Assembly (NCBI GenBank): GCA_047947175.1
Contig: CP170489.1
Coordinates: 1,251,654-1,283,653, forward strand
Direction of reading: 5' to 3'
Source of the DNA: a bacterium
GTDB taxonomy: Bacteria; Pseudomonadota; Gammaproteobacteria; Pseudomonadales; Azotimanducaceae
DNA: 32,000 nt
The position numbers were made by a program, and so were the translations under genes. This document shows, piece by piece, positions 12,029 through 29,360 of this stretch. Each line of letters opens with the position of its first letter. Within the stretch, counting starts at the first letter, position 1. The notes under the pieces are model-generated. The model searched no databases, was not told where the DNA came from, and saw only the letters and a program-made list of their open reading frames with translations.

Positions 12029-12418
12029 GTGGCGTATGTCACCCTTGTGGTCATGGTTGCCCTGGCGGAATATTTGTATTTTGGCGTTGCAGTCGGGCGC
12101 GCCCGGGCACGCCACGGTGTGGCCGCGCCAGCTGTTACCGGCGACGAGAAGTTTGAGCGCTTTCATCGCGCGCATCAGAATACCCTGGAGCAGCTGGTGG
12201 TATTTGTGCCCGCGGTTTATGCAGCAGGTTATTTTGCAAACCAGTGGCTGGCAGTGGGGATGGGCGTGGTGTTTGTAATTGCCCGCGCGCACTATTTCCG
12301 TAGCTACATAGCCGACCCTGCCCGCCGCGGGGCAGGCATGATCGGCAGTATGTTCGCGGTGGTGACCCTGCTGGCTGCTGCGATGGTTGGCGCTGTGCGT
12401 TACGCGCTCGCCGGGTAG
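12029..12418 (+). CDS. MAPEG-family membrane protein
   Basis: 129 aa with a GTG start and hydrophobic helices. It contains the motif FERFHRAHQNTLEQLVVF typical of MAPEG/microsomal GST-like proteins. Its 3' end overlaps the convergent hydrolase fragment. Confidence 0.78.
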   Translation: MAYVTLVVMVALAEYLYFGVAVGRARARHGVAAPAVTGDEKFERFHRAHQNTLEQLVVFVPAVYAAGYFANQWLAVGMGVVFVIARAHYFRSYIADPARRGAGMIGSMFAVVTLLAAAMVGAVRYALAG

Positions 12419-12729
12419 TGGCGCTGTAACCAATCCAGCATGGCGGCATTGGTGGCCGCAGGTTGCTCCTGCTGTATCCAGTGCCCGCAAGGCAGATGCA
12501 CAACTTCCAGGTTGCTGACAAATTTGTTCAGTGTTGGTGAGCTGGGCACCATATCGTGCTCGCCGTAGATCATCAGCGTTGGCTGATGAACGTGTTGTTC
12601 ATATGCACCTGTTATTTCCCAGTTACGTGAAAAGTTGCGGTACCAGTTGATTCCGCCGGTAAAGCCTGAATGCGCAAATGCCTTGCTGAATACCTCCAGT
12701 TCTGCGTCACTCATCAGCGCATCAGCCGG
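12395..12729. repeat. Left copy of ~335-bp direct repeat flanking the CRISPR-Cas insertion
   Basis: It aligns gap-free at a constant offset of 16010 nt with 28405-28739. I counted 6 mismatches by eye. It covers the MAPEG tail plus the hydrolase 3' end. Confidence 0.9.
12400..12729 (-). pseudogene. 3' fragment (about 110 codons) of the alpha/beta hydrolase gene; duplicate of 28410-28739
   Basis: The translation ...PADALMSDAELEVFSKAFAHSGFTGGINWYRNFSRNWEITGAYEQHVHQPTLMIYGEHDMVPS...GHWIQQEQPAATNAAMLDWLQRHYPASA is near-identical to the C-terminus of the intact 316-aa gene at 28410-29360. It has no N-terminal catalytic part. The MHIN start of the tracked ORF is fortuitous. Confidence 0.88.
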
Positions 12730-13000: not shown

Positions 13001-16000
13001 TTTTTGAGCTGTCTGTGCGGCAGTGAACTGGGCTATGCGCCAATTAGTTTGTATTGCCTATTTCTAAGCTGCCCATGCGGCAGTGAACACTAACGATTGT
13101 GTTACGAGAATAATCTCTGTTTTCTAAGCTGCCTGTGCGGCAGTGAACGGGCGCACAGATACGCTTACAGCGCCTATATTTTTCTAAGCTGCCTGTGCGG
13201 CAGTGAACATTGTAACCCTGAGGCAACATCAGACGGGGCATTTCTAAGCTGCCTGTGCGGCAGTGAACGTCCCGATGCCTGGCTTTTCAATCCGTGGACA
13301 TTTCTAAGCTGCCTGTGCGGCAGTGAACGACAGCCATAACATAGGGCTTCAGCGTTTAAATTTCTAAGCTGCCTGTGCGGCAGTGAACGCTTGTCGCTAA
13401 AGCAAGTAAGTTTTTCGAAATTTCTAAGCTGCCTGTGCGGCAGTGAACGACACCTACTTTGCCGCCCGATTCATTATCTCTTTCTAAGCTGCCTGTGCGG
13501 CAGTGAACTTCGCGCTGTGCGACCACCTGGTTTGGTGGCTTTTCTAAGCTGCCTGTGCGGCAGTGAACACAAAGAATTCGAGGACTTTATTGACAGTGTT
13601 TTTCTAAGCTGCCTGTGCGGCAGTGAACGTTAGTCGTGTAATTTGAGGCTTTGATGATTCTTTCTAAGCTGCCTGTGCGGCAGTGAACTTTAGTCAACCA
13701 TGCCGCGCCACGCGGATTAGTTTCTAAGCTGCCTGTGCGGCAGTGAACATATTGCAACGGCATTCCCGTATTCGATCAATTTTCTAAGCTGCCTGTGCGG
13801 CAGTGAACGTTTCTCTGCAGCCAGTGCAGCCTCAACACCATTTCTAAGCTGCCTGTGCGGCAGTGAACGCAAATAGATACCCAACACGCACGGCCTTGAT
13901 TTTCTAAGCTGCCTGTGCGGCAGTGAACTTCATCGACCATGACCTGAATTTCATTTGTCATTTCTAAGCTGCCTGTGCGGCAGTGAACGCTTGTATGACC
14001 GCATCACTGTCTCGATAGATTTTCTAAGCTGCCTGTGCGGCAGTGAACCAGGGAGTTCCAGGCCGCTGGCTATGATTTTCTTTCTAAGCTGCCTGTGCGG
14101 CAGTGAACGTGAGTACCAATCAGGCTACCGCATAAGCTCTATTTCTAAGCTGCCTGTGCGGCAGTGAACGTCTAAGTCACTCATCCCTGTTCTCCTGTGG
14201 TTTTCTAAGCTGCCTGTGCGGCAGTGAACCAAGAGATAAAGGACCCTCAGCCACCACAGGATTTCTAAGCTGCCTGTGCGGCAGTGAACGCATTGAACCA
14301 TACCGTCAACAGCAGACTCTTTTTCTAAGCTGCCTGTGCGGCAGTGAACTTGTACAGCCTGACCACTCAGTCCAATGAGGTTTTCTAAGCTGCCTGTGCG
14401 GCAGTGAACGCGCGGAAGGGCATGCAAGCGAATATTTCGGCTTTCTAAGCTGCCTGTGCGGCAGTGAACGCTAGAAGTGTTTCCGCGTCTTGAGGCTGTA
14501 TTTTCTAAGCTGCCTGTGCGGCAGTGAACTGGGTGATTGGCTTTATCACATTCCGAACGGTTTTCTAAGCTGCCTGTGCGGCAGTGAACATCTGCCGTTC
14601 GCACTCCCTAGCTGCCGCTGTTTTCTAAGCTGCCTGTGCGGCAGTGAACTCATGGCCGAGAAGCGCAAAGAGGCCGTGGATTTTCTAAGCTGCCTGTGCG
14701 GCAGTGAACCTCGACCAGCCGTGTCATGCAGATGTGTTGCTTTTCTAAGCTGCCTGTGCGGCAGTGAACTTTTTGGTTGGCGACCCTGCCCACGTTTGTA
14801 TTTTCTAAGCTGCCTGTGCGGCAGTGAACTTGACACCGCTCAAGTTGGCATCGCTCAAGTATTTCTAAGCTGCCTGTGCGGCAGTGAACTGTTTTCTACA
14901 TATGGCAAGGCATATCTGGATTTTCTAAGCTGCCTGTGCGGCAGTGAACTGAAGCCATCGCCAAGCCCAAACCTATTACAATTTCTAAGCTGCCTGTGCG
15001 GCAGTGAACGCAGCACCCCCACGGTTTGCTATCTGCTCGGATTTCTAAGCTGCCTGTGCGGCAGTGAACGCGATGAGGGTGGCTGTAGGCTCGCTGCGAA
15101 TTTTCTAAGCTGCCTGTGCGGCAGTGAACTTTGGGTCGCTATGAAAGTAAGAGAACAACAATTTCTAAGCTGCCTGTGCGGCAGTGAACGATGATGATTT
15201 TCAGGCGTGGACGCGCCTGCATTTCTAAGCTGCCTGTGCGGCAGTGAACATGTACGTGTCGACGTTTGCGGCCGTGATCCATTTCTAAGCTGCCTGTGCG
15301 GCAGTGAACGTGTAGATCGCCGCTTTCGCAATGGCAACCGTTTTCTAAGCTGCCTGTGCGGCAGTGAACGCAGATCCTCAAAGCGTTTTTTTCAATTGGT
15401 TTTCTAAGCTGCCTGTGCGGCAGTGAACGGTGTGGTCAACAGGTACCTGCGCGCTGTGGTTTTCTAAGCTGCCTGTGCGGCAGTGAACGACGGTAGGCCG
15501 CGAGATTCATATCGTGGATTTTTCTAAGCTGCCTGTGCGGCAGTGAACGAAGCGGAAGAATGCAACGAAATCATCGCTTTTTTCTAAGCTGCCTGTGCGG
15601 CAGTGAACACACCGTAACCATCTTGCTCGCTGTCGCGCCATTTCTAAGCTGCCTGTGCGGCAGTGAACGTAGGTGTCCACTCATTAAAATCACTCATCAC
15701 TTTCTAAGCTGCCTGTGCGGCAGTGAACATCTCGCGCTCTATTCTAGCTACCGCGTCAACTTTCTAAGCTGCCTGTGCGGCAGTGAACTAACCCTTGTGC
15801 AATGTACGTGCATTTAATAATTTCTAAGCTGCCTGTGCGGCAGTGAACGCTCAGCGTATCTGCTTAATACGGCTGCAAGATTTCTAAGCTGCCTGTGCGG
15901 CAGTGAACGGTATCCCGCAGCTATCAGGATCTCCTTGCTATTTCTAAGCTGCCTGTGCGGCAGTGAACATAAGCCTGCTGCAAAGCTTGGTAGACCAAAA

Positions 16001-16688
16001 TTTCTAAGCTGCCTGTGCGGCAGTGAACTCCACGATAACGAATTCCATAACGTTCAATTTTTTCTAAGCTGCCTGTGCGGCAGTGAACACCTCGCCCCAG
16101 TCCTTATGGTAAAGCCTGCGTTTCTAAGCTGCCTGTGCGGCAGTGAACCATTACACAGATGATGACTGGGCCATAGTTGATTTCTAAGCTGCCTGTGCGG
16201 CAGTGAACGCCAAGTGTTTTTTAGTCCTGCCTCTGGGGTATTTCTAAGCTGCCTGTGCGGCAGTGAACGCGCACAACGTAGAGCCGCACATTAGAAAGAA
16301 TTTCTAAGCTGCCTGTGCGGCAGTGAACTGAATCGTTTTTTCTTATTGTTGGCCTTAATATTTCTAAGCTGCCTGTGCGGCAGTGAACCTTTGTGGCTGG
16401 CACATCGGTAGTCGGTGACATTTCTAAGCTGCCTGTGCGGCAGTGAACGCCTTTTGGGTGCCCCATTATCTCTCTATGTATTTCTAAGCTGCCTGTGCGG
16501 CAGTGAACTAAGCAGTGGTTGGCGCGGTTTTCACAATGAATTTCTAAGCTGCCTGTGCGGCAGTGAACATGCGCGACCTGAACCTGGTGGTGCGGTTGTT
16601 TTTCTAAGCTGCCTGTGCGGCAGTGAACTTAATGGCGTTTATCATCGTTCGCGGCCTTTCTTTCTAAGCTGCCTGTGCGGCAGTGAAC
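13001..16688 (-). CRISPR. Type I-F CRISPR array, 62 repeats / 61 spacers
   Basis: The 28-nt repeat GTTCACTGCCGCACAGGCAGCTTAGAAA (minus strand) is the I-F consensus type. Period is 60 nt. There are 59 spacers of 32 nt, one of 33 nt (14109-14141) and one of 31 nt (15370-15400). The two repeats at the 13001 end are degenerate (13001-13028 with 3 mismatches, 13061-13088 with 2), which marks the trailer. The cas operon and an AT-rich leader lie on the 16689 side. Confidence 0.98.
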
Positions 16689-16859
16689 TGCAGTATAAGC
16701 CACAAAAACGTTGCGATAACAAAGGCTTAGCGCAATATTCCACGTTTTACCAATGAAAGCTTGGTTAGTTCTAACCGATTGATTTCTAATTAGTATTTTG
16801 AACAGCAAAAAAGATTGGTGTTCCAACACTCCCCGATAGCACCTTATGGCTACCTCGCT
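16689..16859 (-). promoter_or_regulatory. CRISPR leader (AT-rich) with IHF-consensus-like site
   Basis: This 171-nt AT-rich non-coding stretch abuts the non-degenerate end of the array. The minus strand at 16772-16784 reads AATCAATCGGTTA, matching WATCAANNNNTTR. It overlaps the palindrome GGTTAGTTCTAACC (16763-16776). Confidence 0.55.
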
Positions 16860-18257
16860 TTAGGTCTCGCCCAAACAGGACTGTATGAAACGCGGCGCCT
16901 GCCCAACCAGATACAGCGGAAGCGAGAGCAGTTCATACTCTAATGCCGTTCCATCAGTCAATTTTTTGTTGTCAATCCACAAACTGGGGACATCTGCATT
17001 AAACCGCAATGCGAAATGACGCTGTTTTTCCTTTAAAAACTGGTGCAGTGATTTCAGTGTGCCTGTCGTGCCCGCTTTGATTTCCACCGGCACTACGTGC
17101 CGACCGCTGGTTAGCAGGTAATCTACTTCTGCCGCTGCGCTTTTTGCCTCTCGCACCCAGTAATAGAGCATCGGCAGATCAAAATACGGACCACTGTAGA
17201 GTAACTGCTGCCCGATAAACTGCTCGGCAAGTTCACCATTGTTCACCAGGCATAGATCCTCTTTGCTGATATCTAACACATTGAGGTTGAGCGCAGCACA
17301 CATGAGACCAACGTCCATATACAGGGTTTTGAACACGCGGGGATTGGCCTCGGCCCCTAGAGGGATTCCATTAGCGGATGAATGAATCACTCTGGCAGCA
17401 ACCCGCGCCATGCACAATTGCTGCAATGCCGCCTCTAGTTCCGCTGCGCGATGGTCGCGACTGATCTGTGCATACTTGAATTTTCGACCTACCATGCGCG
17501 GCAGACGGTCAAATACCAACTGCACGCGGTACTTTAGGGTGCCCTGGCTGTATTTGTTGAAGTCATCGCGATAGGTGGCCACGATACTGTGATGCACGTG
17601 GGCGACATCAGCAAAATCGCCCGATTGCACATAGCTGGCCACCGCCTCTGGCAGACCACCCACGATCCAGAACTGTTTCAGCAAAGAGAGACTCTTTTCG
17701 TGCACAACCCTGGGTAAGCGTTGCGCGCGAATATCCTCCAATGAGAGTTGTTGCAGGTAATGCACCAGTTCCAGCTGCCCCATGGCCTCAGCAAAATCTT
17801 CAAATTGCATGGGCCCTAGGTGCAAGTATTCGACACGGCCGACCGGCATGGAGAACTGAGCCTCCTCGAGCGCAAACTCCAGCAAGGAACCTGCGGCCAG
17901 TACATGTAGATCTGGCGTCTCCTCATAGAAGTAACGCAGGGTGGTCAATGCCTCTGGCGCAGCCTGGATCTCATCGAGGAACAGCAGAGTAGTGCCGGGT
18001 ACGATCTTAGCGCCGGTCAGCAGCTTCAGGACAGCTTGGACTTGCACCGGATCCTTACTGGTGAACGCCTCGCTGTACTCGGGATTGCGCTCGAAGTTAA
18101 TCTCAAGCAATGAGAGGCCGCTGGTCTCTGCAAACTGCCGCACCAACGTTGACTTACCCACCTGCCGCGCACCTCTGATAATCAAAGGCTTGCGGGGAGT
18201 CCGTGCAGCCCAATTGATCAGATGGGCCAGTTCTCTACGATTGAGTAATTGAGCCAT
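16860..18257 (-). CDS. AAA+ ATPase with C-terminal PD-(D/E)xK-like module (AAA_14/DUF4143-type architecture as I recall it), 465 aa
   Basis: Walker A is GARQVGKST (aa 29-37) and Walker B-like is LLFLDEIQ. The C-terminus EVDYLLTSGRHVVPVEIKAG reads as a D...ExK nuclease core. It lies on the same strand as the cas genes, between cas6f and the leader. Confidence 0.82.
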   Translation of the reverse strand: MAQLLNRRELAHLINWAARTPRKPLIIRGARQVGKSTLVRQFAETSGLSLLEINFERNPEYSEAFTSKDPVQVQAVLKLLTGAKIVPGTTLLFLDEIQAAPEALTTLRYFYEETPDLHVLAAGSLLEFALEEAQFSMPVGRVEYLHLGPMQFEDFAEAMGQLELVHYLQQLSLEDIRAQRLPRVVHEKSLSLLKQFWIVGGLPEAVASYVQSGDFADVAHVHHSIVATYRDDFNKYSQGTLKYRVQLVFDRLPRMVGRKFKYAQISRDHRAAELEAALQQLCMARVAARVIHSSANGIPLGAEANPRVFKTLYMDVGLMCAALNLNVLDISKEDLCLVNNGELAEQFIGQQLLYSGPYFDLPMLYYWVREAKSAAAEVDYLLTSGRHVVPVEIKAGTTGTLKSLHQFLKEKQRHFALRFNADVPSLWIDNKKLTDGTALEYELLSLPLYLVGQAPRFIQSCLGET

Positions 18258-18301
18258 GGTTGTATTTACCTAGTGCTAAAGCTGGGAAAATACGACTTGA
18301 A

Positions 18302-18329
18302 TTGATATTTTACAACCTTGTTATGTCAA
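18302..18329 (-). promoter_or_regulatory. Candidate sigma70 promoter for the ATPase gene
   Basis: On the minus strand, TTGACA (18329-18324), a 16-nt spacer and TATCAA (18307-18302). It sits in the 145-nt AT-rich gap between the cas6f stop and the ATPase ATG. This is a sequence match only. Confidence 0.35.
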
Positions 18330-18402
18330 TATTTTATATATTTAACAGCCTTATTTAACCAAGGGATGCACGTTGGACAATATTTTGGCCCTGCAGCCGG
18401 AT

Positions 18403-18954
18403 CTAAAACCATGGAATCGTTGCGATTTTCGAAAGACCAAACTGATCAAAAGTGCCTTCAACAGGATTATCCAGCAATGGCCCAAATTCTAGATAGCGGC
18501 GATGCCTATGGCCATTTGAGCCGCTTTTCAACTCAATGTAGGGGTTATCCAGACCCTTATTGAACATCTTGGCTTTGTATGCGTTGACTTGATCTCCTGT
18601 GATTGTTCCCCGCTTTAGCAAACGATTTAACTTGGCGTTGCTCATAGTTGTTTGCTTGCGGGAAACAACACGAAATTTTGCACCTGTAGGCACAAGCTCT
18701 ATATTGCTCGGTTCACAATACTCCCTCATCCCTCCTATCCAGTTAAGACTTTGGAGTTTGCCCAATGCTTCTGCGGTACCGTGGATACGCATCAGGTCGC
18801 CAAGCGTTTTCTTATACCTTGGGAAACTAACACCAATACTTACGGAGTGTAGATGGCAAAGGGCTTTGTGAGCTTTGCTAAAGACCGCATTCATCAATAT
18901 TGTTGAATTGAATTCTGGGTCAGGCTTAAGTCGAATATCAATGTAGTAGTCCAT
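18403..18954 (-). CDS. cas6f: Cas6f (Csy4) crRNA endoribonuclease
   Basis: MDYYIDIRLKPDPEFNSTILMNAVFSKAHKAL...IGVSFP... is collinear with Pseudomonas Csy4 (MDHYLDIRLRPDPEF...). It is the last gene of the csy operon. Confidence 0.95.
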   Translation of the reverse strand: MDYYIDIRLKPDPEFNSTILMNAVFSKAHKALCHLHSVSIGVSFPRYKKTLGDLMRIHGTAEALGKLQSLNWIGGMREYCEPSNIELVPTGAKFRVVSRKQTTMSNAKLNRLLKRGTITGDQVNAYKAKMFNKGLDNPYIELKSGSNGHRHRRYLEFGPLLDNPVEGTFDQFGLSKIATIPWF

Positions 18955-18957
18955 GGC

Positions 18958-19977
18958 CTACCCCGCATCCCCAAATACACCGCCGCGAATCAAGGTTGCA
19001 ACGATGAAGTGCTGTTGTTCCGGATCAGGGGTTTTACCTTTGAGAATCCATCCATCTAGCAGGTTATAAAAATCCATTTTTTGCTTTGGTTGGCGATAGG
19101 CTTTTCCCTGAGTTGTTACAGAGCCGTAGGGTTCTACGGCGATGGGCCCCATTTCATCAGCACCTTCATACCACGTATCAATAGTTCGCAAAGCATTGCC
19201 AATTTTCTGCGAGTGCATTGCAGCGATGTTATCGACGTCATAAAGCGTTTTACTCTTGTCGCCTCGCCCGCGTTCTAATATTAGTTCCTGCGATGGATAT
19301 ACTTCCTGGCCAGCTCCGATTCGAACCAAAGCCAAAACTTCCAGCAACACATGCTGCTCACCAAGAAACCCCTGCTCGATCACTTTGGTTAAAGCTTCAA
19401 GATCAGCAGGTTGGGAAGAAAAATCGCGGAGTGAAAAATCCAGCGCGTCAAATTTCCAATGAGCTATAGCTTGTCCGTCACGCAGCTGTGAAACCTGCAC
19501 TTCAATCGTCTCCGCTCCTAAGCGGTTGCGCCATAGAAAGCGGCCATTAGCCAGATTAGTGGCATAACGTTTTGACAACTCTAAAAAGCCAATGTTTTTT
19601 ACATATCCGTTAATGCTGTCTTGAAGTTTTGCCTGGTAGTCTGCACTGTTACAGGCAGATGGCCTCCCCGTGCCTGGCAACACCCGGAGGGAGAAAACTA
19701 CTTTTAGCGTATCCAAATCGCCAGGAAGCGACGCAACGTCAACAGTTTGCAGGTTTGGATTTTCAATTGCAGCATCCAGTTTTGCAGGATCCTGGTCTTT
19801 GGTCTTTAACCGGTTAGAAATTGTGCCTCGCACCGATTTTTCCTGGATACGAACTGCGGGCCAGCTATGGTGATTTTTTCGATCATCCCAGTTACCTGCG
19901 TAAAATTGTGCATCAGAAGGATCGAGCTTACGTTCGAAGGCCAATACAGAAGCAGTTTTCAATGTGTCTTTACTCAT
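18958..19977 (-). CDS. csy3: Csy3 (Cas7f) Cascade backbone subunit
   Basis: 339 aa. Position and size are canonical. The N-terminus ...[25 protein letters not shown]... is Csy3-like. Confidence 0.93.
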
Positions 19978-20006
19978 GGTTGTTTCCTTTGCTTTGTTGA
20001 ATTGAA

Positions 20007-20987
20007 CTAGTCGTAGTCAAATTCGGGGGTAAGGCTGTACACGAAACCGTTTTTGCAGCGGTATACGCCGTTATCAGGTTGATATTCGGCATACCACAAC
20101 AATTGCTGAATTTCCTGAAGTCGATGCGGGCTGATCCACTGGCCGATGCCGTAAAGACTTTCAACAAAACGGAAGTCGGTCTGCATATCTCGGGCATTGG
20201 CGACGGTTCCCGCCGCTTGTAATTCGGTTAGAGCGCCATAGCCTAGCGGGATGGGGACGATCCAGCCTTTACGGTCGTGCTGCCACCCTGCTTTTTCAGG
20301 ATTTTCTCCATCGGTTTGCCAGCGCCAGTTAAACCGTGAAAGTGATAGCCAGGCATCGAGCCGCGTACAGTCCGGAGTTTGATTGCGCATTTCTTCAAAG
20401 CGTTGATCAAGCAAATCCTGTCGTTCCACCAACGCAAAGCCAGGCAATAAATGGCGTTTTAATTTGGCGAATTGCTCATATCGTGTTTCGCCGTCACTGC
20501 TGATTGGCAGAATGTAGGGCGTGAAGCGCTTTTGTGCGCCGGGTTGTGGCAGCACCGTACCACCGGCGATGCGCATTTCTTCGATTAATTGTTTAATCTG
20601 TAATGCCGTGTTCTGTGCTTGCTCGTGATCGTTCAGACTTTGACTTTGTAGAGCGAAAACCAGGCTAATCGTCATATGCATGCGACCCTCTTCTACAATG
20701 GCCGCTGTTGAGCCGTCTTTGCCGATGGGATTGCGTGTTAATCGAAAAGATTTTGCATAGTAGTCATCAGTGACTAGTTCCTCATAGCCATGTGCCACTA
20801 CGCCAACGGCGTTTAACATTAAATCCATTCCCGCCGCGTGCATCTTGCGTTCCAAGGCCCACATTAGCCCAATAAAAGCGCTGATTGCCGGGAAGCCGTG
20901 AGTTAGCGAGCCAGAAATTGCGTTGGCGTTTTGTACGCGCAGCCGGGGAATAACCAAAATTTGGTCAAAGTGAGGAAGCTCAGTCAT
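20007..20987 (-). CDS. csy2: Csy2 (Cas5f)
   Basis: The start at 20987 ([41 protein letters not shown]...) overlaps the csy1 stop in ATGACTGA. Size (326 aa) and position are canonical for I-F. Confidence 0.92.
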
Positions 20988-22347
20988 GGCTGAACTCCTG
21001 TGTGTCGTCCGCGTGCATTTTAGGCTTAGTCGTAGGCAGCCACCCCGCATCTGCAAGCGCTTGCTTTGCCCAGTGTTTTAACTCTGCGTCACCCACCGGC
21101 AAGTCCTCTTCGCGAAGAATGGCGTTTAGCCACAGTGCAAAATCAGTGGCCACCTGATCTGGCCAGTCGTTCCATTCCAGCGCTTGTTGAAATTCGCGAT
21201 CTTCAGCTTCGAAATCCGGTTGCAACGCCAATTCGGCCCGATCCATATCCAGCCAGATTTTTTGATGCAGTGGCAAATCACATTCAGGGTTGCGTGTCCA
21301 GCCAGGCTCGTACCCGTATCGAATTTCACCGCCGAAATTCGCTAATGCCTGCGCGAGCGCTTGTTCGATACGTTCGCGCTTTTGGCGAGTATCTATGGTT
21401 TTTTCCGGATCACTTTTTAGCAGAGTAATCAGTCTTTTGAGCAGCAGATTTGTATCTTCGAAACTGCGAAATCGTTTTAGCGCACTTCCTATTCCTAGAT
21501 ACGACTTTTGATCGGGGTGTATCCATTTCGGAGGGCAACAGGAAAGCAGATAGTTAACACCACCGCGCTCGCTGTTGAGCTGACTGATGTTTTGAGGCTT
21601 GGTGCCTCCCAGCTTGCGCACGGAAAGGTTAGGGTAATTGCGATAAGTTCCATTGTGTGGTGTTTTGGCGTAATAAGCCTTACGTACCTCCTTATTAAAT
21701 TCTCCATAGCGGGCATCATTTAATTGGGAATGTACTACGTGTAGCAGGCTGCTCGGAAAGAGTGTTTGCAGCAGGTGAAAATTTTCGTCATTGCTGGGAT
21801 CGCCGGATATGCACCAGTAAACTTGCTTGGCCATCGTATGCGAGATAAGGCTATCGCCCGCTTGTGCTAAGCCTTTGAATGCTTGCGCCCATTTCTGGCT
21901 CAGTTCGGTGTCAGCGTGGAAGGCAGCGAGCAGATCTGGATCGTCTTGCTGTAACCAATCGAGTAGCCTTCTGTTTTCAACTTCGATTTTCAAAAATTTG
22001 TATACATCAAGGGCTGCTGCATTCCCGACGATGTCGTCGTCGTATTCGTGGCCGAGGTTATGCGTACCGATTTCCGTTCGCTCAGGAAGTGTGTTTAACG
22101 CAATATGCAAACTGGTGCCACGCGCATCTGGGTGGCTTGCCTTCAAGATATGGGTTACCGCTTGAATCTGCGAAACACGGCGCGCAGCGTCTGCGATCCA
22201 AGCGTGGTATTCGTATTTGGCCTTGGCTTCTGCAGCTTTTTGGGCGCTTAGACCCTTAAGTTTCGTCTCTCGCCGGTCGACGATAAAGTCGCTTATCGCT
22301 TGACGAAAGTTGGTCGCACGTGGCGATAGGGAAGGTAGCGTACTCAT
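20980..22347 (-). CDS. csy1: Csy1 (Cas8f) large subunit
   Basis: 455 aa. The N-terminus ...FRQAISDFIVDRRETKLKGL...KYEYHAWIADAARRVSQIQAVTHILKASHPDARG is typical of Csy1. It is the first gene after cas2/3. Confidence 0.92.
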   Translation of the reverse strand: MSTLPSLSPRATNFRQAISDFIVDRRETKLKGLSAQKAAEAKAKYEYHAWIADAARRVSQIQAVTHILKASHPDARGTSLHIALNTLPERTEIGTHNLGHEYDDDIVGNAAALDVYKFLKIEVENRRLLDWLQQDDPDLLAAFHADTELSQKWAQAFKGLAQAGDSLISHTMAKQVYWCISGDPSNDENFHLLQTLFPSSLLHVVHSQLNDARYGEFNKEVRKAYYAKTPHNGTYRNYPNLSVRKLGGTKPQNISQLNSERGGVNYLLSCCPPKWIHPDQKSYLGIGSALKRFRSFEDTNLLLKRLITLLKSDPEKTIDTRQKRERIEQALAQALANFGGEIRYGYEPGWTRNPECDLPLHQKIWLDMDRAELALQPDFEAEDREFQQALEWNDWPDQVATDFALWLNAILREEDLPVGDAELKHWAKQALADAGWLPTTKPKMHADDTQEFSHD

Positions 22348-22486
22348 AATGGAGATTCCTGGTTCGACTTAAGTTCTTCAAAACACTAGTTTCCCAAAGC
22401 GACATCCTGTGGGGATCGTCATGACAAAAACTAAGATGTTCTGATCATACATATGTCACAATGCTTATCTGTCCTCCTTAGTGCGA

Positions 22487-25400
22487 TCATGCGCGTACTT
22501 GGGTGTCATACGAAGTCGTCAATTTTGGTTGCTTCTTCAATCCAAAACCCAGGGCGGGATGAAACCACCAACCTTGGGTGCTTTCCGTTACATTCACTAC
22601 TGTAAATTTTTGCGCGCAGGTTCTTAGTGGTAGCTCTTGTGCTTCTGCCAATTCTCGTAACAGAGTAATCAGATCGAATTCCCCCCAAAGGCTTACACCT
22701 CGACCAAAATCCAAATTCAGAGTGTGAAGCCGTCTTTCTTCTGCGGTATAGATTGCTCGTTTACCTTTAGAGGCCTGCTGGTGCACACGGTGCAACAGCA
22801 ATTTTTCTTCATCGTCGTCGGGTAGAAACAGTAAGGTCTCCTCTCGTACTTGATTTAATCGAAAAGGCTGATGTTGAGGTAACGCCCAAGTTAGAGCCGC
22901 CTGTGGATAAAGCCAATTAGAAGCAGCATTAAGTCGTGTACCAGTCGGCTTTTCACCTCGCACAAGCGGTGTTGAGGACCTTTCTACAGGTAGCATGCAT
23001 TGCGCGAGACGGCTGTGTTCCAGATCCACCAAACTACTTTGCGAATCCCATGGTTGTGATTGCGGAAATATGCGTGGTTTGGCTGAGATGATTTTGTATT
23101 CGTCCTCGCGTAGAAGTTTTTCGAGGTTGTGTGAGTTAAGTCGGAAGAGATCGTGGGGATCTTTGGACTCTAGTTCAAACCCAGGTTTGACAAAGACAGC
23201 ACTGCCCTTCTCCTGATAAAAATGGCGCAGGTTCTTATTAAAAATTAAAATGTTGGGCCGCTCGCAGGTTTTTTGGCGGTGGCGCTGTACTCGGCCCGCG
23301 AGCTGAATTAAAGAGCGCATAGAAGAGGGCTCAACAATTGCCCAATCGTAATCATGGTCACGACCCACTTCCGTAACCGGGGAGCCAAGTACGACAAAAA
23401 TATGGTTTTGCTCCGAATGGGTGTCCAAGCTCTCCCTGATAACCTGCTGTTCGTACACCGCGCTGGGTTGTCGACGGTTGAGAGTAGTATCGAGTTGGTG
23501 CTCAATCCTGGATCGCAACAGCAGCGGAAAACGCGAGTGATAGACACAAATATGAAGATGTACGTTGGTTGGGGCATCGCCCTCAAACAAGGTTTTCGCC
23601 ATGCAAAGTAGAGGCTCAATATTGGCCATGCGCACAAGGCCGAAACTGACGCGTTTGCCACTGACTGGACAGATTTCAAAGTGCGCTTCATGCGCCTCTA
23701 AGATGGCGTCTCGAACAGGGACGGCAAACTCACCCGCAACTTCCTCGAGTTTTTTTCCCTGAAAAGTTAAAGGCTTTAAAACGCCGCGCCGTTTGGCACC
23801 ATGTTTCTTGATGGATTTATCCAGCTGATTCACTCGTCGATCAATAAATTCCAGGTGACTTTTTGAAAATTGATCTCCTGTTGCGCAGCTGTAGGCGCGT
23901 GTCGTGAATTCGTCGACCCAGAGACAAGGTATATCTAGCTGTGCTGTTCCTTGCTTGCCGGCTGCGCTACGATTTCGGAAAAAATGCTGGCGTCCAGCCA
24001 AATAGGCTTGATACATGCCCTCAACTAGCGATGGGGGAAGTGTGGCCGACGAAATTAAAACACGTGTGCCTAATAATCCTGCCCAATGAATGAGACGCGT
24101 GAGCGCAGGCAGGTCATTGATATCGAAATCATCCAACTCGTCCAGCACCAAGTCGCTGCTCATTAATCTAAGCATTGGCGCAATTTGTCTACCAGCGCGT
24201 TGTGCTTCGGTGGCTGGCATCAAGTGATCTATCGTGCAGACCAGCACAGGAGCCGCTAGTAGTTTTTTAATTTTCGAGTCGGAGAGTACTTTAGATAAGA
24301 TTGGGTGTTCCTCGAGCAAGCCTTCGTATTCGATGTAGCCGTCTTCTTCGATTAACTCCTGCACTGATGCAGAACCCGTGCTTTCTGCCTGTTCTTCATA
24401 ATAGTCGAACAAGGCGTGGCTGGCTGAACCGCCTACTCGTATCGCCAGTTCGTCTTCATCTAAATGCAGATCTTCCCGATAACTTCGACCAGTTTGCAAA
24501 GTGAGCGTGCGCAGGCCAAGCGCGAAGGACACTCGCATACCTTCCTCAGGCTTGGCGAGGGCATATAAAATACGCGCATTGGCTAAGGTTTTACCGCAAC
24601 CGGTGGATGCCATGTTAATTATGAAAGCTCCATTTTTTTCTGAGGCTTCACGTATTTTTGTTGCTGCATCTGCTGCTTTGTCCTGCCAGCGAAAGTGTTC
24701 TAAACGGCTACGCTTTTTTAATCCTTGATGCGCCGCCAATCTTGGTAACCCCTTCTCTATGACTGGCAAGCAATGAGCAATACTGCCAGAAAGACGCGCA
24801 ACACCGAGCAAGTGTTCCGTCAATGTTTGTTTGAGTGAGCCGTCTTTATGTGTATTTGCATATATTGCATCGTCTACGTCACCCTGCTCGCGTTCTTTGG
24901 ATTCCGGCGGCAGTGAGGAGTAGTGATGATCAGCGAGCATCAGAGTTAAACGTGAAAGATGCATAACATAGGGATTGTTCAGCCAGGCTTCCGGATGATT
25001 GTTTTTAAGTTGTAGTAGCTTTTCCGCTAGCTTGGCCAAACGTTTGCGCCACTTGGGAAAACTAAAAGGCAATTTTTCCTTGAATGACCAATATGATTTT
25101 ATCGAAGTGGATTCATTCGACTGAGGGATTTCATTCCAGTTTGCTTTGACAGCTAACAGTGGGTCTGCCAACTGAGACGCAGAAAAATTCATTGACGGCT
25201 TTCCTAGATACTGTTGGATGCCATCGAAATCGTAGGACGGAATCACCGGTAGACGATGGTGCGTAACAACCAACCAAGCAATAGCAGCAGCCAACGGCTG
25301 TAAATCTGTAAAAGGGGCTGGAGTTTCCTTGTCGATACCATCACGCCAATAGCGACCATTTTGTGTCCAACTTGCGTCGTCCGAGTCCGTAGGTGAAATC

Positions 25401-25915
25401 ATTCTGCGCAGCCACCTTTCGTCCTCATCGTTGCCGACAAAAGCAAGAAAGAGACGTAATGAAACCCATTCGTGGCGATAGATATTTTTTTCGTGAAGAT
25501 TCTTTTTGAGACGATTTTGAAACGCGATACTTGCTTTGCCGAGGTCGTGTAGCAAAGCCGCAATCTGTGAAAGTAGTTTTATGTCCTCCGCGCTGTACCA
25601 ATCATCATCCATATCGGTTTTGAGCACGGCCCGGTGGGTAGAGTTAACCGGTACTCGGCCATCTTCATCAAATTTGTTGCGGTTGCCCACCACCCAAACC
25701 AACTCCGAACGGCTTCTGCTCCGTATCCAATGACAACTCACCGCTGTATTCTTGCTTGCGGTTTTTCGCAATAGTTTTTTTACGGCCTTTAACCCTTCCT
25801 CAGTAATTACTGTCTGCCAGGTATTGTCGCCAATACGATCGGCAAATGCGTCGAGCACCCGCCGGGTACGGCCGAGCGCCTTTTTCTCACACTGGGAAAC
25901 AAATGTGACCATCAT
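22487..25915 (-). CDS. cas3: Cas2-Cas3 fusion (Cas3f) nuclease-helicase, 1142 aa
   Basis: The N-terminal Cas2 domain (VSQCEKKALGRTRRVLDAFADRIGDNTWQT) is collinear with P. aeruginosa Cas2/3. It also has the HD motif LLHDLGKASIAFQ, helicase Walker A ASTGCGKT and DExD-like LDELDD. Confidence 0.96.
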   Translation of the reverse strand: MMVTFVSQCEKKALGRTRRVLDAFADRIGDNTWQTVITEEGLKAVKKLLRKTASKNTAVSCHWIRSRSRSELVWVVGNRNKFDEDGRVPVNSTHRAVLKTDMDDDWYSAEDIKLLSQIAALLHDLGKASIAFQNRLKKNLHEKNIYRHEWVSLRLFLAFVGNDEDERWLRRMISPTDSDDASWTQNGRYWRDGIDKETPAPFTDLQPLAAAIAWLVVTHHRLPVIPSYDFDGIQQYLGKPSMNFSASQLADPLLAVKANWNEIPQSNESTSIKSYWSFKEKLPFSFPKWRKRLAKLAEKLLQLKNNHPEAWLNNPYVMHLSRLTLMLADHHYSSLPPESKEREQGDVDDAIYANTHKDGSLKQTLTEHLLGVARLSGSIAHCLPVIEKGLPRLAAHQGLKKRSRLEHFRWQDKAADAATKIREASEKNGAFIINMASTGCGKTLANARILYALAKPEEGMRVSFALGLRTLTLQTGRSYREDLHLDEDELAIRVGGSASHALFDYYEEQAESTGSASVQELIEEDGYIEYEGLLEEHPILSKVLSDSKIKKLLAAPVLVCTIDHLMPATEAQRAGRQIAPMLRLMSSDLVLDELDDFDINDLPALTRLIHWAGLLGTRVLISSATLPPSLVEGMYQAYLAGRQHFFRNRSAAGKQGTAQLDIPCLWVDEFTTRAYSCATGDQFSKSHLEFIDRRVNQLDKSIKKHGAKRRGVLKPLTFQGKKLEEVAGEFAVPVRDAILEAHEAHFEICPVSGKRVSFGLVRMANIEPLLCMAKTLFEGDAPTNVHLHICVYHSRFPLLLRSRIEHQLDTTLNRRQPSAVYEQQVIRESLDTHSEQNHIFVVLGSPVTEVGRDHDYDWAIVEPSSMRSLIQLAGRVQRHRQKTCERPNILIFNKNLRHFYQEKGSAVFVKPGFELESKDPHDLFRLNSHNLEKLLREDEYKIISAKPRIFPQSQPWDSQSSLVDLEHSRLAQCMLPVERSSTPLVRGEKPTGTRLNAASNWLYPQAALTWALPQHQPFRLNQVREETLLFLPDDDEEKLLLHRVHQQASKGKRAIYTAEERRLHTLNLDFGRGVSLWGEFDLITLLRELAEAQELPLRTCAQKFTVVNVTESTQGWWFHPALGFGLKKQPKLTTSYDTQVRA

Positions 25916-25952
25916 ATCGCGTCGCCTTCATCTAGTTTGGCACACTTGTTAA

Positions 25953-26915
25953 TCACGCTGTTACATCCTTGCCCTGATGATGTGATAGCGCAACTGTCTT
26001 CACTTGATCAAACATAAAATCAAGTGCTTTATGGTCTGTAAAGGCTTGCAGGCACTGCTGCCGAAATTCCTGTTCGGTTGCCTGTTCATTCGCACAGATG
26101 AAAGCCCAGGGCAGCACAAGACTATCCTTCACCAGGTCCGCGATATCGAACACCAAAGCACCACGGCGGGTCTTCCCGTGCATCACGGCGAAACCATGCG
26201 GAATACCCAGCACCCATAGTGTGGTGGCGGCCAGGCCATAGGCAAGGTAATTCCCGTGGTTGAGAAAAGCATTGGCATCGTCGACGGCGTCCCGTTTACG
26301 CACGAATTTGGTCTGCTTGGTCCGATTGGCCGCAACCTTGTAGAGGTGTTTGGTCAGTTCCGCCTCCAGTTGCAGAAGCTTTCCAACTGTGGGGGCGTGT
26401 GTGATTCCTTCAAGGCTCGTTAACAAGGCACCATGAATATCTTCGTCCCCGACATCGAAGCCTGCCCCAAGAAGGTTCCGGTCTTTCGACCAGACCATAC
26501 GCATGAATTCGATTCGCGCTGTCTGAAAAAGCTTGGCAGCCTCAAGACGCTTCTGCCCGTCGAACCAGAATTGCATCCAGCCCTGGATATATTCGGTGGG
26601 ACGGTATTCGCTCTGCGGTGACAGCCACTCTATTTCCGTCGCCATAAGTAATGGCGTAGCCCCGCCACCACAAAATCCGACCAGCACACCGGCGGAAGCC
26701 AGCATACGCATGGCGGCCTGTGTAATGGACGTCCCCGTGCCGAGTAACAAGCAGGTGGTGTTGGCGATTGGTATGTTCCAGTACTGGTTTTCATTTCTGG
26801 CCTCAGTAAGATAAAGTACGCGCCCATCCTTTTGCATCACGCGGCACTTTTCGAGGTAGTAAATGTTGGCTCTCTTGGATTGAAGTATAGCTTTCAGATC
26901 AGTTAGCGCTTCCAT
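25953..26915 (-). CDS. cas1: Cas1, type I-F
   Basis: ILQSKRANIYYLEKCRV...YWNIPIANTTCLLLGTGTSITQAAMRMLASAGVLVGFCGGG...LNHGNYLAYGLAATTLWVLGIPHGFAVMHGKTRRGALVFDIADL is near-collinear with P. aeruginosa I-F Cas1. Confidence 0.96.
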   Translation of the reverse strand: MEALTDLKAILQSKRANIYYLEKCRVMQKDGRVLYLTEARNENQYWNIPIANTTCLLLGTGTSITQAAMRMLASAGVLVGFCGGGATPLLMATEIEWLSPQSEYRPTEYIQGWMQFWFDGQKRLEAAKLFQTARIEFMRMVWSKDRNLLGAGFDVGDEDIHGALLTSLEGITHAPTVGKLLQLEAELTKHLYKVAANRTKQTKFVRKRDAVDDANAFLNHGNYLAYGLAATTLWVLGIPHGFAVMHGKTRRGALVFDIADLVKDSLVLPWAFICANEQATEQEFRQQCLQAFTDHKALDFMFDQVKTVALSHHQGKDVTA

Positions 26916-27092: not shown

Positions 27093-28076
27093 TTAGAGTC
27101 GGGACGCTTTAATTTCTCCCGTGTAGTGGGCAATAGACTGTTTAAGCCGGCCAAGCACCTCGTGCTTGAGCGAATCTGGTCCCTCGACAATACAATCCGG
27201 CACGTGGCGGAGGATGTCTTGCACCAGTTCAGCGGGTTCGCTGAAAGGGATGGTTAGCAGATAGTCTTTCTTGTCCCACTTGCCGGTCTGGGCGGGGTGC
27301 CAGCGTTGGCTGGCTATTTCCCTGGCGATGCGTGGTAGAAAACGTAACATGGCCGTTTGTGTCGCCGCACCGCTGAAAACGCCGTAGCTGCTCTTGGCAA
27401 ATGCATCGAGTTTGGAATCGTCGATCTCTGCGCAGTCTTCGTCCGTATCGCGGCAGTGTTCGATCCGCGCCAGCGAGAAAATACGTAGACCATCACGCAG
27501 ATGACACCAGGCATCTAGATACCAGTTGTCGCGATAGTACACGAGCCGCTGTGGGCTTACGTTTCGTTTGCTCAACTTCTGGTTAAAGTCGCGATAACGA
27601 ATATGTAGCTGATTGCGATCTACGAGTGCGTTCAACACATGATGCAAACGGTGATCTGGTAAGGTGCGCTGTCCTACTGGCACGATGCGAATCCGTCGCT
27701 CCAGATCGGTTCTGGAGACTCCTCGTTTTTCCAGCATCCGATCAACACTGCTCCGAACCCCGCGCAGTTCGTCATCCATCAAACCGTTGCCAAAACGGCT
27801 GAGAATATCGAGCAGTAACAACAAAGACTGCGATTCTTCTCGTGTCATCCAAAGACCCGGTACTTGCCAGCGGTCTCGTTCATCAGAATCATAGCGCCAG
27901 CCAAGATGCGGGAGGTGTTCCAACGGCGCTTCCCAATAATCCTGCAGGTCGTCAAGATAGCGCTTCACTGTCCTTTCTGAACACTCGAGTCTTCTCGCCA
28001 GATCGCTTAACGATATCGGTGTCTTCCGTGAGTCAAGGATCTGGTGGCAGCGGTAGAGTTGATCAAACTTTCGCAT
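27093..28076 (-). CDS. HTH + WYL-domain transcriptional regulator, 327 aa
   Basis: The N-terminal HTH is ISLSDLARRLECSERTVKRYLDDL. The central WYL domain is HIRYRDFNQKLSKRNVSPQRLVYYRDNWYLDAWCHLRDGLRIFSLARI. There is a C-terminal extension typical of PafBC/CapW/BrxR-like proteins. It is on the same strand as cas1 and 177 nt upstream of it. Confidence 0.85.
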   Translation of the reverse strand: MRKFDQLYRCHQILDSRKTPISLSDLARRLECSERTVKRYLDDLQDYWEAPLEHLPHLGWRYDSDERDRWQVPGLWMTREESQSLLLLLDILSRFGNGLMDDELRGVRSSVDRMLEKRGVSRTDLERRIRIVPVGQRTLPDHRLHHVLNALVDRNQLHIRYRDFNQKLSKRNVSPQRLVYYRDNWYLDAWCHLRDGLRIFSLARIEHCRDTDEDCAEIDDSKLDAFAKSSYGVFSGAATQTAMLRFLPRIAREIASQRWHPAQTGKWDKKDYLLTIPFSEPAELVQDILRHVPDCIVEGPDSLKHEVLGRLKQSIAHYTGEIKASRL

Positions 28077-28404: not shown

Positions 28405-28739
28405 GTGCGTTACGCGCTTGCCGGGTAGTGGCGCGGTAACCAATCCAGCATGGCGGTATTGGTGGCCGCAGGTTGCTCCTGCTGTATCCAGTGCCCGCAA
28501 GGCAGATGCACAACTTCCAGGTTGCTGACAAATTTGTTCAGTGTTGGTGAGCTGGGCACCATATCGTGCTCGCCGTAGATCATCAGCGTTGGCTGATGAA
28601 CGTGTTGTTCATATGCGCCTGTTATTTCCCAGTTTCGTGAAAAGTTGCGGTACCAGTTGATTCCGCCGGTAAAGCCTGAATGCGCAAATGCCTTGCTGAA
28701 TACCTCCAGTTCTGCGTCACTCATCAGCGCATCACCCGG
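28405..28739. repeat. Right copy of ~335-bp direct repeat flanking the CRISPR-Cas insertion
   Basis: See the left copy. It begins with an orphan MAPEG tail GTGCGTTACGCGCTTGCCGGGTAG (VRYALAG*) and continues into the 3' third of the intact hydrolase gene. Confidence 0.9.
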
Positions 28740-29360
28740 CATAGTTTGCGCTTCGGCAATGCGGATCATGTTCATGCCGGCAGGTAGATCCGGTGGCGGC
28801 GAGTGCCATTGATTGGTGCGATACAGATTACGTAGAAACTGTTCCCGGTGTGCCGCAAAGGCTGCATCTGCAACCCCAGGTTGGCGGTTGAAGTGGACAA
28901 TGTAGAAGTCGCCACCCAGATGTTTCTCCCAGAAGCCGACCCATTCGGTTGGGCCGCGCTCCATGAAAGGCACGCTCAAATTCACCACGCCGGCCACCCG
29001 CTCACGGTGCATCATTGCCAGATTCCAGACAATAATGGCGCCCCAGTCGTGACCCACAAACAGCGCATCTTCGTAGCCGAAGTGATCGAGCAGACCCATC
29101 AGATCATCAGTGAGGTGCGTGATGTCGTAGTCGGTTACCGCGTCAGGTCGGCTGGAATGGCCGTAGCCGCGCTGGTTGGGTGCAATCACGTGATAGCCGG
29201 CATCTACCAGCGGCTGTATCTGATACCGCCAGGAAAACGCATGTTCAGGCCAGCCGTGGCACAGCACAATGGGTCTGCCGGCACCTGCACTGAATACTTC
29301 GAGCTCGATGCCGTTGGTTGAAATCATCTGAGGTTCGGGAAAAGAAAACGCCTGGGACAT
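28410..29360 (-). CDS. Alpha/beta hydrolase, epoxide-hydrolase-like, 316 aa (intact copy)
   Basis: It has the HGWP oxyanion motif (LCHGWPEHAFSWRYQ), the nucleophile elbow GHDWG and a C-terminal GHWIQQEQP. This is typical of epoxide hydrolase/haloacid-type alpha/beta hydrolases. Confidence 0.88.
   Translation of the reverse strand: MSQAFSFPEPQMISTNGIELEVFSAGAGRPIVLCHGWPEHAFSWRYQIQPLVDAGYHVIAPNQRGYGHSSRPDAVTDYDITHLTDDLMGLLDHFGYEDALFVGHDWGAIIVWNLAMMHRERVAGVVNLSVPFMERGPTEWVGFWEKHLGGDFYIVHFNRQPGVADAAFAAHREQFLRNLYRTNQWHSPPPDLPAGMNMIRIAEAQTMPGDALMSDAELEVFSKAFAHSGFTGGINWYRNFSRNWEITGAYEQHVHQPTLMIYGEHDMVPSSPTLNKFVSNLEVVHLPCGHWIQQEQPAATNTAMLDWLPRHYPASA

Follow-up and report, generated by a model that had tools for sequence, protein, structure and literature searches.

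A PDC-S01 ATPase-nuclease gene as a recurrent tenant of the cas6f-leader junction in type I-F CRISPR-Cas loci

The phage defence candidates (PDC) of PADLOC were nominated by their embedding in BREX, DISARM, or type I restriction-modification (RM) systems (bioRxiv 10.1101/2024.01.29.577857). One of these families, PDC-S01, has been characterized as a fusion of an ATPase with a PD-(D/E)xK domain and awaits validation; it is reported to be the fourth most common defence-system call in prokaryotes, with some 39,000 mostly stand-alone copies. Here, we analyze a member of this family from a gammaproteobacterium of the Azotimanducaceae. It is encoded in a stretch of 32,000 nt (contig CP170489.1, positions 1,251,654 to 1,283,653; assembly GCA_047947175.1), which we call the window, by a 465-aa open reading frame (ORF) with an ATG start that lies between cas6f and the leader of a type I-F CRISPR array. 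An earlier note, made from the sequence alone, had reported a gene of this length on the strand of cas6f, and its coordinates are exactly right (Table 1). It had also stated that the family has no established function. This is correct as regards experimental proof, and our literature search found no functional study of DUF4143 or COG1373; the family, however, was already a PADLOC defence candidate. The gene is a new member of that known candidate family, in a context that we did not find described in the literature searched. With a probability of roughly 0.55, we read it as an autonomous, self-regulated, single-gene ATPase-nuclease conflict module that occupies a permissive cargo slot of the I-F locus and works independently of crRNA, rather than as a part of the CRISPR machinery.

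The window gene resembles other PDC-S01 members (AAA_14 + DUF4143, or COG1373) in its full-length HMM match, its architecture, and its embedding in a multi-gene defence system. It differs from the founding cases in that its host system is a type I-F CRISPR-Cas locus, where it fills one exact slot, from the cas6f stop codon to the leader, and from other PDC-S01 genes in the conserved 21-nt direct-repeat promoter region of its clade. McrBC likewise pairs an AAA+ NTPase with a PD-(D/E)xK nuclease, and, among solved structures, the C-terminal domain of the window protein resembles McrC most closely (6hz4, probability 0.99). Yet McrBC consists of two polypeptides instead of one, and the window ATPase is nearer to clamp loaders, ORC, and RuvB than to McrB. 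Moreover, the window protein has a winged-helix-like middle and no N-terminal reader of modified DNA, and its TM-score against McrC is about 0.4. Can2 and Card1 are also PD-(D/E)xK nucleases encoded beside CRISPR-Cas, and Can2 (8bao) is among the weak structural matches. These enzymes go with a CARF or SAVED sensor and a type III partner that produces cyclic oligoadenylate, whereas Pfam finds neither sensor in the window protein, its regulator is an AAA+ ATPase, and type I-F makes no such signal. A Can2-like ancillary nuclease is thus ruled out by the lack of a CARF domain and by the locus type.

Avs/STAND-type defences unite a P-loop NTPase switch and a nuclease effector in one protein and are found in defence islands. 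The window protein shares this single-protein NTPase-nuclease design but has no large repeat sensor domain; it is a classical AAA+ protein with a lid rather than a STAND, and its nuclease is C-terminal. Finally, toxin-antitoxin (TA) modules in CRISPR-Cas loci, such as VapC/VagC in Pectobacterium I-F loci, are autonomous conflict modules placed between cas genes and arrays, and TA modules occupy the very same cas6f-leader slot in related loci. The window gene, in contrast, encodes one ATPase-nuclease of 465 aa and lacks an antitoxin partner. It does not form the two-gene operon of type II TA systems, as neither the 145-nt upstream nor the 171-nt downstream intergenic region contains a partner gene. 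CreTA is a small autonomous TA module nested in CRISPR-Cas loci and controlled by Cascade/Csy, but nothing suggests Cascade/Csy control of the window gene.

The protein matches the PADLOC PDC-S01 model PDLC04788 as a single, full-length hit (E=1.2e-148; residues 5 to 460 against profile positions 2 to 443 of 448). Pfam agrees with the domain architecture given in the earlier note, with AAA_14 (E=2.5e-25) and DUF4143 (E=6.9e-25) both above their curated cut-offs, and the Walker A, Walker B-like, and EVDYLL...VPVEIKAG motifs listed previously are all present in the translation, the last of them at residues 377 to 396. The NCBIfam search gave no match, the PDB sequence search returned P-loop similarity to midasin and VCP and nothing more, and an exact-sequence look-up found no record. 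The protein has more than 8000 homologues. Across 68 of these, K35, D95, E96, R141, E345, E377, E392, and K394 are invariant, while D379 is kept in at least 90%; R141 might be an arginine-finger or sensor residue of the ATPase; dN/dS values of 0.05 to 0.16 overall indicate purifying selection.

Both ends of the protein can be assigned to known folds. The N-terminal part carries a Walker A of the form GxxxxGK[ST] and a Walker B of the form hhhhDE. In a full-length AF2 model (pLDDT 77, pTM 0.80), it adopts the AAA+ alpha/beta core with a helical lid, for which Foldseek returned RFC, ORC, RuvB, ClpA, FtsH, and MuB at probabilities of 0.94 to 1.0 (E of about 1e-4). Further along the modelled chain, H268-283, E287-292, and E309-313 look winged-helix-like. 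Residues 330 to 465 were also modelled separately (pTM 0.74), and the AF2 models contain an alpha-beta-beta-beta-alpha-beta core (H335-353, E365-368, E377-384, E387-393, H402-410, and E415-420) with the D...(D/E)xK signature on strands 2 and 3. McrC is the best Foldseek match of this domain (E=4.5e-4), followed by Bax1, BspD6I, EcoT38I, Hjc, DdmD, and Can2, and DUF4143 has been listed as a PD-(D/E)XK family (PMC3424549). The nuclease-like C-terminal core that the earlier note had suspected thus withstood the profile and structure check: the conserved D379/E392-x-K394, the predicted topology, and the likeness to solved PD-(D/E)xK members support such a tail. Overall, the protein thus begins with an AAA+ ATPase similar to clamp loaders and ORC, continues with a helical and winged-helix-like middle, and ends in a nuclease domain whose catalytic residues are intact.

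In the window, the ATPase gene shares its strand with a complete type I-F operon comprising cas1, cas2-3, csy1, csy2, csy3, and cas6f. The leader beyond the gene can be aligned to those of loci L003, L006, L009, L024, L025, and L032, with profile matches reaching E=1e-32. All but one of the 62 repeats (61/62) score above the Rfam CRISPR-DR4 threshold, and the Rfam search returned CRISPR repeats and nothing else. Degenerate repeats mark the leader-distal end of the array; therefore, its leader-proximal end faces the ATPase gene. None of the 61 spacers matched the window or any of the fetched loci. In its base composition, the ATPase ORF (53.3% GC; 60.5% GC3) stands apart from cas6f, csy1-3, and cas2-3 (44 to 51%) and near cas1 and a WYL regulator gene (about 53%), and it is not far from the flanks (56 to 57%). 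The island-like AT-rich composition previously ascribed to the gene is therefore wrong for the ORF and applies to the 145-nt region upstream of it (18258-18402, 35.9% GC), which is present as described.

The suggestion that the gene is wedged into an otherwise canonical locus presupposes that the leader normally follows cas6f directly. To place the leader in related loci, we mapped its profile onto Cas6f-anchored metagenome loci (L096-L175), which positioned it in 50 of them. The leader (about 130 nt) starts 0 to 6 nt after the cas6f stop codon in 5 of these loci and is displaced by 16 to 1353 nt in the remaining 45, so the premise is true for 5/50 and most of these environmental I-F loci depart from the textbook layout. 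The larger gaps code for cargo on the cas6f strand, namely, Zeta-toxin pairs in 6 loci, PIN/VapC pairs in 4, HicB, HepT, and RES, each with a partner ORF, in 2, 2, and 1, respectively, a Gp49/HigB-like protein in 1, an OGFr_N protein in 2, and, in L112, a 384-aa AAA_14 + DUF4143 protein. The last shares only 23% identity with the window protein and falls into a different, distant PDC-S01 subfamily, its best model being PDLC04790. The junction of the cas6f stop codon and the leader 5' end is therefore a cargo hotspot, and the window gene recurs as one of its occupants. Genes are also embedded in a second slot, between cas1 and cas2-3, with a Fic/SoFic gene in L091 (812-1912) and a Bro-N/PDC-S13 gene in L085 (1504-2358). 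In one I-F locus, an extra HTH_37/HTH_3 gene of 148 aa (L094:9424-9870) is found between cas6f and the ATPase gene.

The company kept in this slot, where Zeta, PIN, HepT, RES, HicB, and Gp49 modules are found, raises the alternative that the ATPase gene is an addiction or stabilization module with no antiviral role. According to this explanation, a potentially self-toxic nuclease would be restrained, through its ATPase and regulatory parts or through tight autoregulation, and would either stabilize the island or simply persist selfishly. TA modules are documented in or near I-F loci of Pectobacterium (PMC6963963), and locus L178 stacks the ATPase gene, a Csy4 remnant, ParD/Zeta, and MazE/PIN in this order. 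The operator-like pair of direct repeats in the promoter and the negative phage assay of one PDC-S01 representative, both described below, point the same way. However, the gene is a single ORF without a partner, the HTH_37 neighbour in L094 being a one-off, and solo copies in housekeeping surroundings have nothing obvious to stabilize. On balance, we consider a pure addiction module rather unlikely; furthermore, several TA modules are themselves defence systems, and to that extent this explanation overlaps with an autonomous conflict module.

How often the ATPase recurs beside I-F loci was assessed by scanning one genome per species, which gave 80 loci with relatives, and by looking up the closest metagenomic proteins. 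Besides the window, 14 relatives with 48 to 85% identity are linked to I-F, throughout in the same slot and orientation (L003, L006, L009, L024, L025, L032, P0002-P0005, P0016, and P0029, as well as L001 and L178, which are remnants of decayed loci). The first six of these have Cas6f immediately upstream, an I-F array immediately downstream, or both. A complete I-F operon precedes the ATPase gene in P0002 and P0003 (85%), P0004 (83%), P0005 (81%), P0016 (79%), and P0029 (74%), and a leader and array follow it wherever the contig extends far enough; P0008 (82%, 12 contigs) and P0041 (71%) adjoin mere Cas6f remnants. Among the relatives examined, the I-F-linked share is 11/19 at an identity of at least 68%, 2 of about 14 at 60 to 66%, 1 of about 11 at 45 to 52%, and 0/43 below 45%. 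In this last group, no relative is near I-F cas genes or repeats, and a generic detector gave two short, doubtful repeat clusters. The linked ATPases occupy at least five separate positions in the ATPase tree. By a rough estimate, a single gene inserting at random would hit this one intergenic slot with a chance on the order of 1 in 4000 per I-F-bearing genome. The association is thus far from random for this clade, although not family-wide, and the enrichment beside I-F loci that the earlier note had set as a test holds at the level of the clade.

Such recurrence is what one would expect of a functionally coupled I-F accessory or guard, be it a back-up nuclease that responds to inhibited or overwhelmed Csy or Cas2-3, a helper of adaptation at the leader, or a booster of pre-crRNA transcription. 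In addition to the constant slot and orientation in the window and its 14 linked relatives and the share of 11/19 among the closest ones, this explanation draws support from the distant PDC-S01 subfamily in the same slot of L112, from the lack of a terminator-like site between the ATPase gene and the leader, and from a correlation with Cas1 divergence discussed below. A gene of Thermus thermophilus may also be relevant: TT_P0211 (AAA_14, DUF4143), downstream of CRISPR 2.7, is listed with a 6.6-fold change in expression when plasmid DNA is present (PMC4406477). Yet an accessory of the Cas machinery would be expected in most loci of its subtype or lineage, and the ATPase gene was found in 0/61 Cas6f-anchored metagenomic I-F loci with enough downstream sequence (at least 400 nt or a nearby repeat after cas6f; Cas6f 55 to 68% identical to that of the window). 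I-F therefore does not need it. Nor do most family members lie beside cas genes, none of the 43 relatives below 45% identity being CRISPR-linked, and the slot itself is also used by unrelated TA cargo.

Copies outside I-F loci, or surviving their loss, also speak against functional coupling. An 81%-identical copy stands alone among housekeeping genes (L002/L092). Relatives with 60 to 71% identity adjoin a type II CRISPR-Cas locus with Cas9, Cas1, and an array (L010:2455-11400), a DISARM DrmA gene (L015:6620-11400), and type I-E cas3/cas8e (L023:10001-17613); other neighbours of close non-I-F homologues are SoFic, AbiL, AriA, PDC-S04, PDC-S13, and a type IV restriction enzyme. In the decayed loci L001 and L087-L090 (together 12 contigs) and in L178, a Cas6f C-terminal remnant of 75 to 80 aa lies beside an intact ATPase gene; L001 and L087-L090 also retain roughly the first 50 nt of the leader. 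A dN/dS of 0.155 between L001 and L003 indicates that the ATPase has been kept intact under purifying selection despite the decay of I-F.

If the ATPase gene were an accessory, we would also expect it to co-diverge with the effector module. Across 11 embedded loci, however, ATPase and Cas6f identities are uncorrelated (Spearman rho 0.19), which rules out a single ancestral insertion that co-diverged with the operon. For example, the ATPases of the window and L091 are 81% identical and their Cas6f proteins 31%, while L006 and L084 share 73% identity in the ATPase, 79% in Cas6f, and 94% in Csy3. The comparison with Csy3 divergence is ambiguous (rho 0.26, Mantel p=0.016). In one locus, the movement of the gene has left a trace. 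L009:8895-11700 is a mosaic in which cas6f, a leader, and two repeats are followed by the 3' remnant of a second cas6f (FDQFALSKTATVPWF and stop), the ATPase gene with its promoter, a second leader, and three repeats. Such a mosaic is what recombination through CRISPR repeats leaves behind, and here this recombination imported a block made up of a cas6f 3' end, the ATPase gene, the leader, and the array.

The ATPase gene could also be a neutral passenger, a helper of DNA repair or replication without a role in conflict, or a selfish homing-type nuclease that copies itself into the cas6f-leader site. It is a single-gene cassette with no recombinase nearby, it shows presence/absence polymorphism among close relatives, it encodes a nuclease domain, and its phylogeny is decoupled from the flanking genes. 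Nevertheless, strong purifying selection and enrichment in defence neighbourhoods run counter to neutrality, no relative was found in viral contigs, and plasmid-borne relatives all have less than 40% identity. We regard these explanations as very unlikely. A site-specific homing endonuclease is ruled out by the unrelated cargo in the same slot and by the presence of the gene at unrelated sites, and an integron-type cassette is ruled out by the gene's own promoter and the lack of a convincing attC-like structure.

The region between cas6f and the ATPase gene provides further evidence on autonomy. Here, a 21-nt unit with the consensus AAACAAGGTTGTAAAATATCA occurs twice as a direct repeat with a 33-nt period (window positions 18303-18356), and it is likewise found upstream of the ATPase gene in about 25 relatives, with a third copy in L091. 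In the relatives, a -10 of the form TAnnCT or TATTTT follows the -35-like TTGTAA after 17 nt. The whole arrangement of repeats and promoter keeps a constant distance to the ATG inside and outside I-F loci alike. The unit pair looks like a candidate operator overlapping the -35, and the direct repeats probably serve as an operator for autoregulation. That the gene has its own promoter region, as the earlier note had proposed, is borne out by promoter-like elements conserved across relatives. Of the elements it had named, TTGACA (18329-18324) and TATCAA (18307-18302) are present with a 16-nt spacer, but TTGACA is not conserved in relatives. A generic promoter scan called neither promoter candidate, and a generic scan found no terminator-like site between cas6f, the ATPase gene, and the leader. 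We found no mention of the 21-nt direct-repeat promoter region of this clade in the literature searched. A small hairpin (stem ...UAGCC/GGCUA...) lies just 3' of the ATPase stop codon (window 16815-16862, minus strand), at a position kept in the closest relatives (L001, L003, and L084). It was rejected as a terminator since, in the window, it does not outscore shuffled sequences (z=-0.07) and it lacks a U-tract.

Given that the promoter and repeat pair travel with the gene, that it persists as a solo copy and intact in decayed loci, that its divergence does not follow that of Cas6f, that its GC content of 53% exceeds that of cas6f, csy1-3, and cas2-3, and that close homologues outside I-F loci have other conflict systems as neighbours, we favour an autonomous module. 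The accessory role in I-F immunity that the earlier note had preferred fits these results worse, and we consider it unlikely; its alternative, a single-gene defence module travelling with CRISPR-Cas, fits better. As an autonomous module, the protein would assemble on DNA through its AAA+ and winged-helix parts upon ATP binding, as its folds and motifs suggest. Once assembled, it would be licensed to cut with its nuclease domain, much as McrBC-type ATPase-nuclease restriction systems do, and would either destroy invading DNA directly or damage its own cell in an abortive response. The slot may tolerate insertions that leave the cas operon and the leader unbroken, and cargo placed there would move with the island. 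Spread from locus to locus could proceed by recombination in the conserved flanks, with the repeats and leader on one side and the cas1 side on the other, as is seen directly in the mosaic locus L009.

Several observations weigh against an autonomous module or qualify it. A DNA-bound oligomer, cleavage, and autoregulation are predictions from folds and motifs, and the TM-scores of the nuclease domain are modest (0.4 to 0.5). The PDC-S01 family has no demonstrated function, and in the only assay found, made in E. coli B against T4, T5, and T7, its one representative was not among the four protective candidates (10.1101/2024.09.26.614923). Furthermore, the divergence of the ATPase is correlated with that of Cas1 (rho 0.62, Mantel p of about 0.03, 9 loci), which indicates a history partly shared with the frame of the locus. 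This tracking of Cas1, along with the common GC content of about 53% of the ATPase, cas1, and WYL genes, would fit a locus frame in which the ATPase stays and the effector module is exchanged, although with 9 loci it is suggestive; host relatedness could also be the source of the correlation. Finally, recurrence is very position-specific, with the same slot and strand in at least five positions of the ATPase tree and in two distant subfamilies, and selection for a functional tie to I-F, instead of mere tolerance, might be the reason. In that case, the ATPase-nuclease would be a true I-F partner selected at the cas6f-leader junction, a guard that fires if Csy or Cas2-3 is blocked, for example, by anti-CRISPRs, or if the locus is lost, and its promoter would read into the leader and array. 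Such a partnership would account for the presence of two distant PDC-S01 subfamilies, and of at least five ATPase lineages, in exactly this slot and orientation, but we hold it to be improbable on present evidence.

Two further features of the window concern the island as a whole. The HTH-WYL-WCX gene upstream of cas1 lies outside the ATPase cassette and is probably the regulator of the I-F locus; a WYL gene also occupies this position in L081, L084, and L094, and L024 and L025 contain a homologue. In addition, two 335-bp direct repeats with 98.2% identity (12395-12729 and 28405-28739) bracket the entire CRISPR-Cas island of about 15.7 kb, which comprises the WYL regulator, cas operon, ATPase, and array. 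They correspond to the duplicated 3' end of an alpha/beta-hydrolase gene (28410-29360, minus strand), and no integrase is visible inside the bracketed island.

Table 1. Features of the window and of one related locus. Coordinates are window positions unless a locus is named.
Feature	Coordinates	Strand	Evidence or remark
AAA+ ATPase / winged-helix / PD-(D/E)xK nuclease gene	16860..18257	-	ORF, Pfam, PADLOC PDC-S01
AAA_14 ATPase domain, residues 22-155	17793..18194	-	Pfam
Walker A GARQVGKST, residues 29-37	18147-18173	-	
Walker B LLFLDEIQ, residues 91-98 (D95, E96)	17964-17987	-	
DUF4143 region, residues 231-396	17070..17567	-	Pfam; helical and winged-helix part, then start of nuclease core
PD-(D/E)xK nuclease core, residues 335-420	16998..17255	-	Topology, conservation, Foldseek
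E345			Helix 1 of nuclease core
E377	17127-17129	-	Strand 2 of nuclease core
D379	17121-17123	-	Strand 2 of nuclease core
E392-I-K394	17076-17084	-	Strand 3 of nuclease core
Regulatory region of the cassette	18258..18402	-	Motif pair at fixed distance from ATG in relatives
Proximal 21-nt unit, core TTGTAAAATATCA	18315-18303	-	Unit ends at 18303
Distal copy of the unit, CTGTTAAATATAT	18348-18336	-	Degenerate; 33 nt upstream of proximal unit
Putative -35 TTGTAA	18315-18310	-	Conserved in relatives; within proximal unit
Putative -10 TATTTT	18292-18287	-	17-nt spacer from -35
Type I-F leader, 171 nt	16689..16859	-	Intact; pushed away from cas6f by the ATPase cassette
Type I-F CRISPR array, 62 repeats (GTTCACTGCCGCACAGGCAGCTTAGAAA) and 61 spacers	13001..16688	-	Sequence, Rfam CRISPR-DR4
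Type I-F cas operon	18403..26915	-	Pfam Cas_Csy4, Cas_Csy3, Cas_Csy2, Cas_Csy1, Cas3_I-F_Cas2, Cas_Cas1
cas6f	18403-18954	-	Pfam Cas_Csy4, E=9e-57
csy3	18958-19977	-	Pfam Cas_Csy3
csy2	20007-21056	-	Pfam Cas_Csy2; start uncertain
csy1	20980-22347	-	Pfam Cas_Csy1
cas2-3	22487-25915	-	Pfam Cas3_I-F_Cas2
cas1	25953-26915	-	Pfam Cas_Cas1
HTH-WYL-WCX regulator gene	27093..28076	-	Pfam; PADLOC WYL model, E=8e-39
Slot cargo of L112, AAA_14 + DUF4143 protein	L112:4717-5871	+	

Should the gene turn out to be no more than cargo, the finding would be a useful but incremental one. Its reproducible context makes the choice between independent restriction or abortive defence, addiction, and partnership with CRISPR directly testable, and the clade offers natural controls in its solo copies, its copies in decayed loci, and the loci that carry TA cargo instead. 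Were the partnership with I-F true, it would be the first functional handle on one of the most abundant uncharacterized defence candidates in prokaryotes. With the survey of the slot, "guilt by embedding" reaches beyond BREX, DISARM, and RM systems to CRISPR-Cas.

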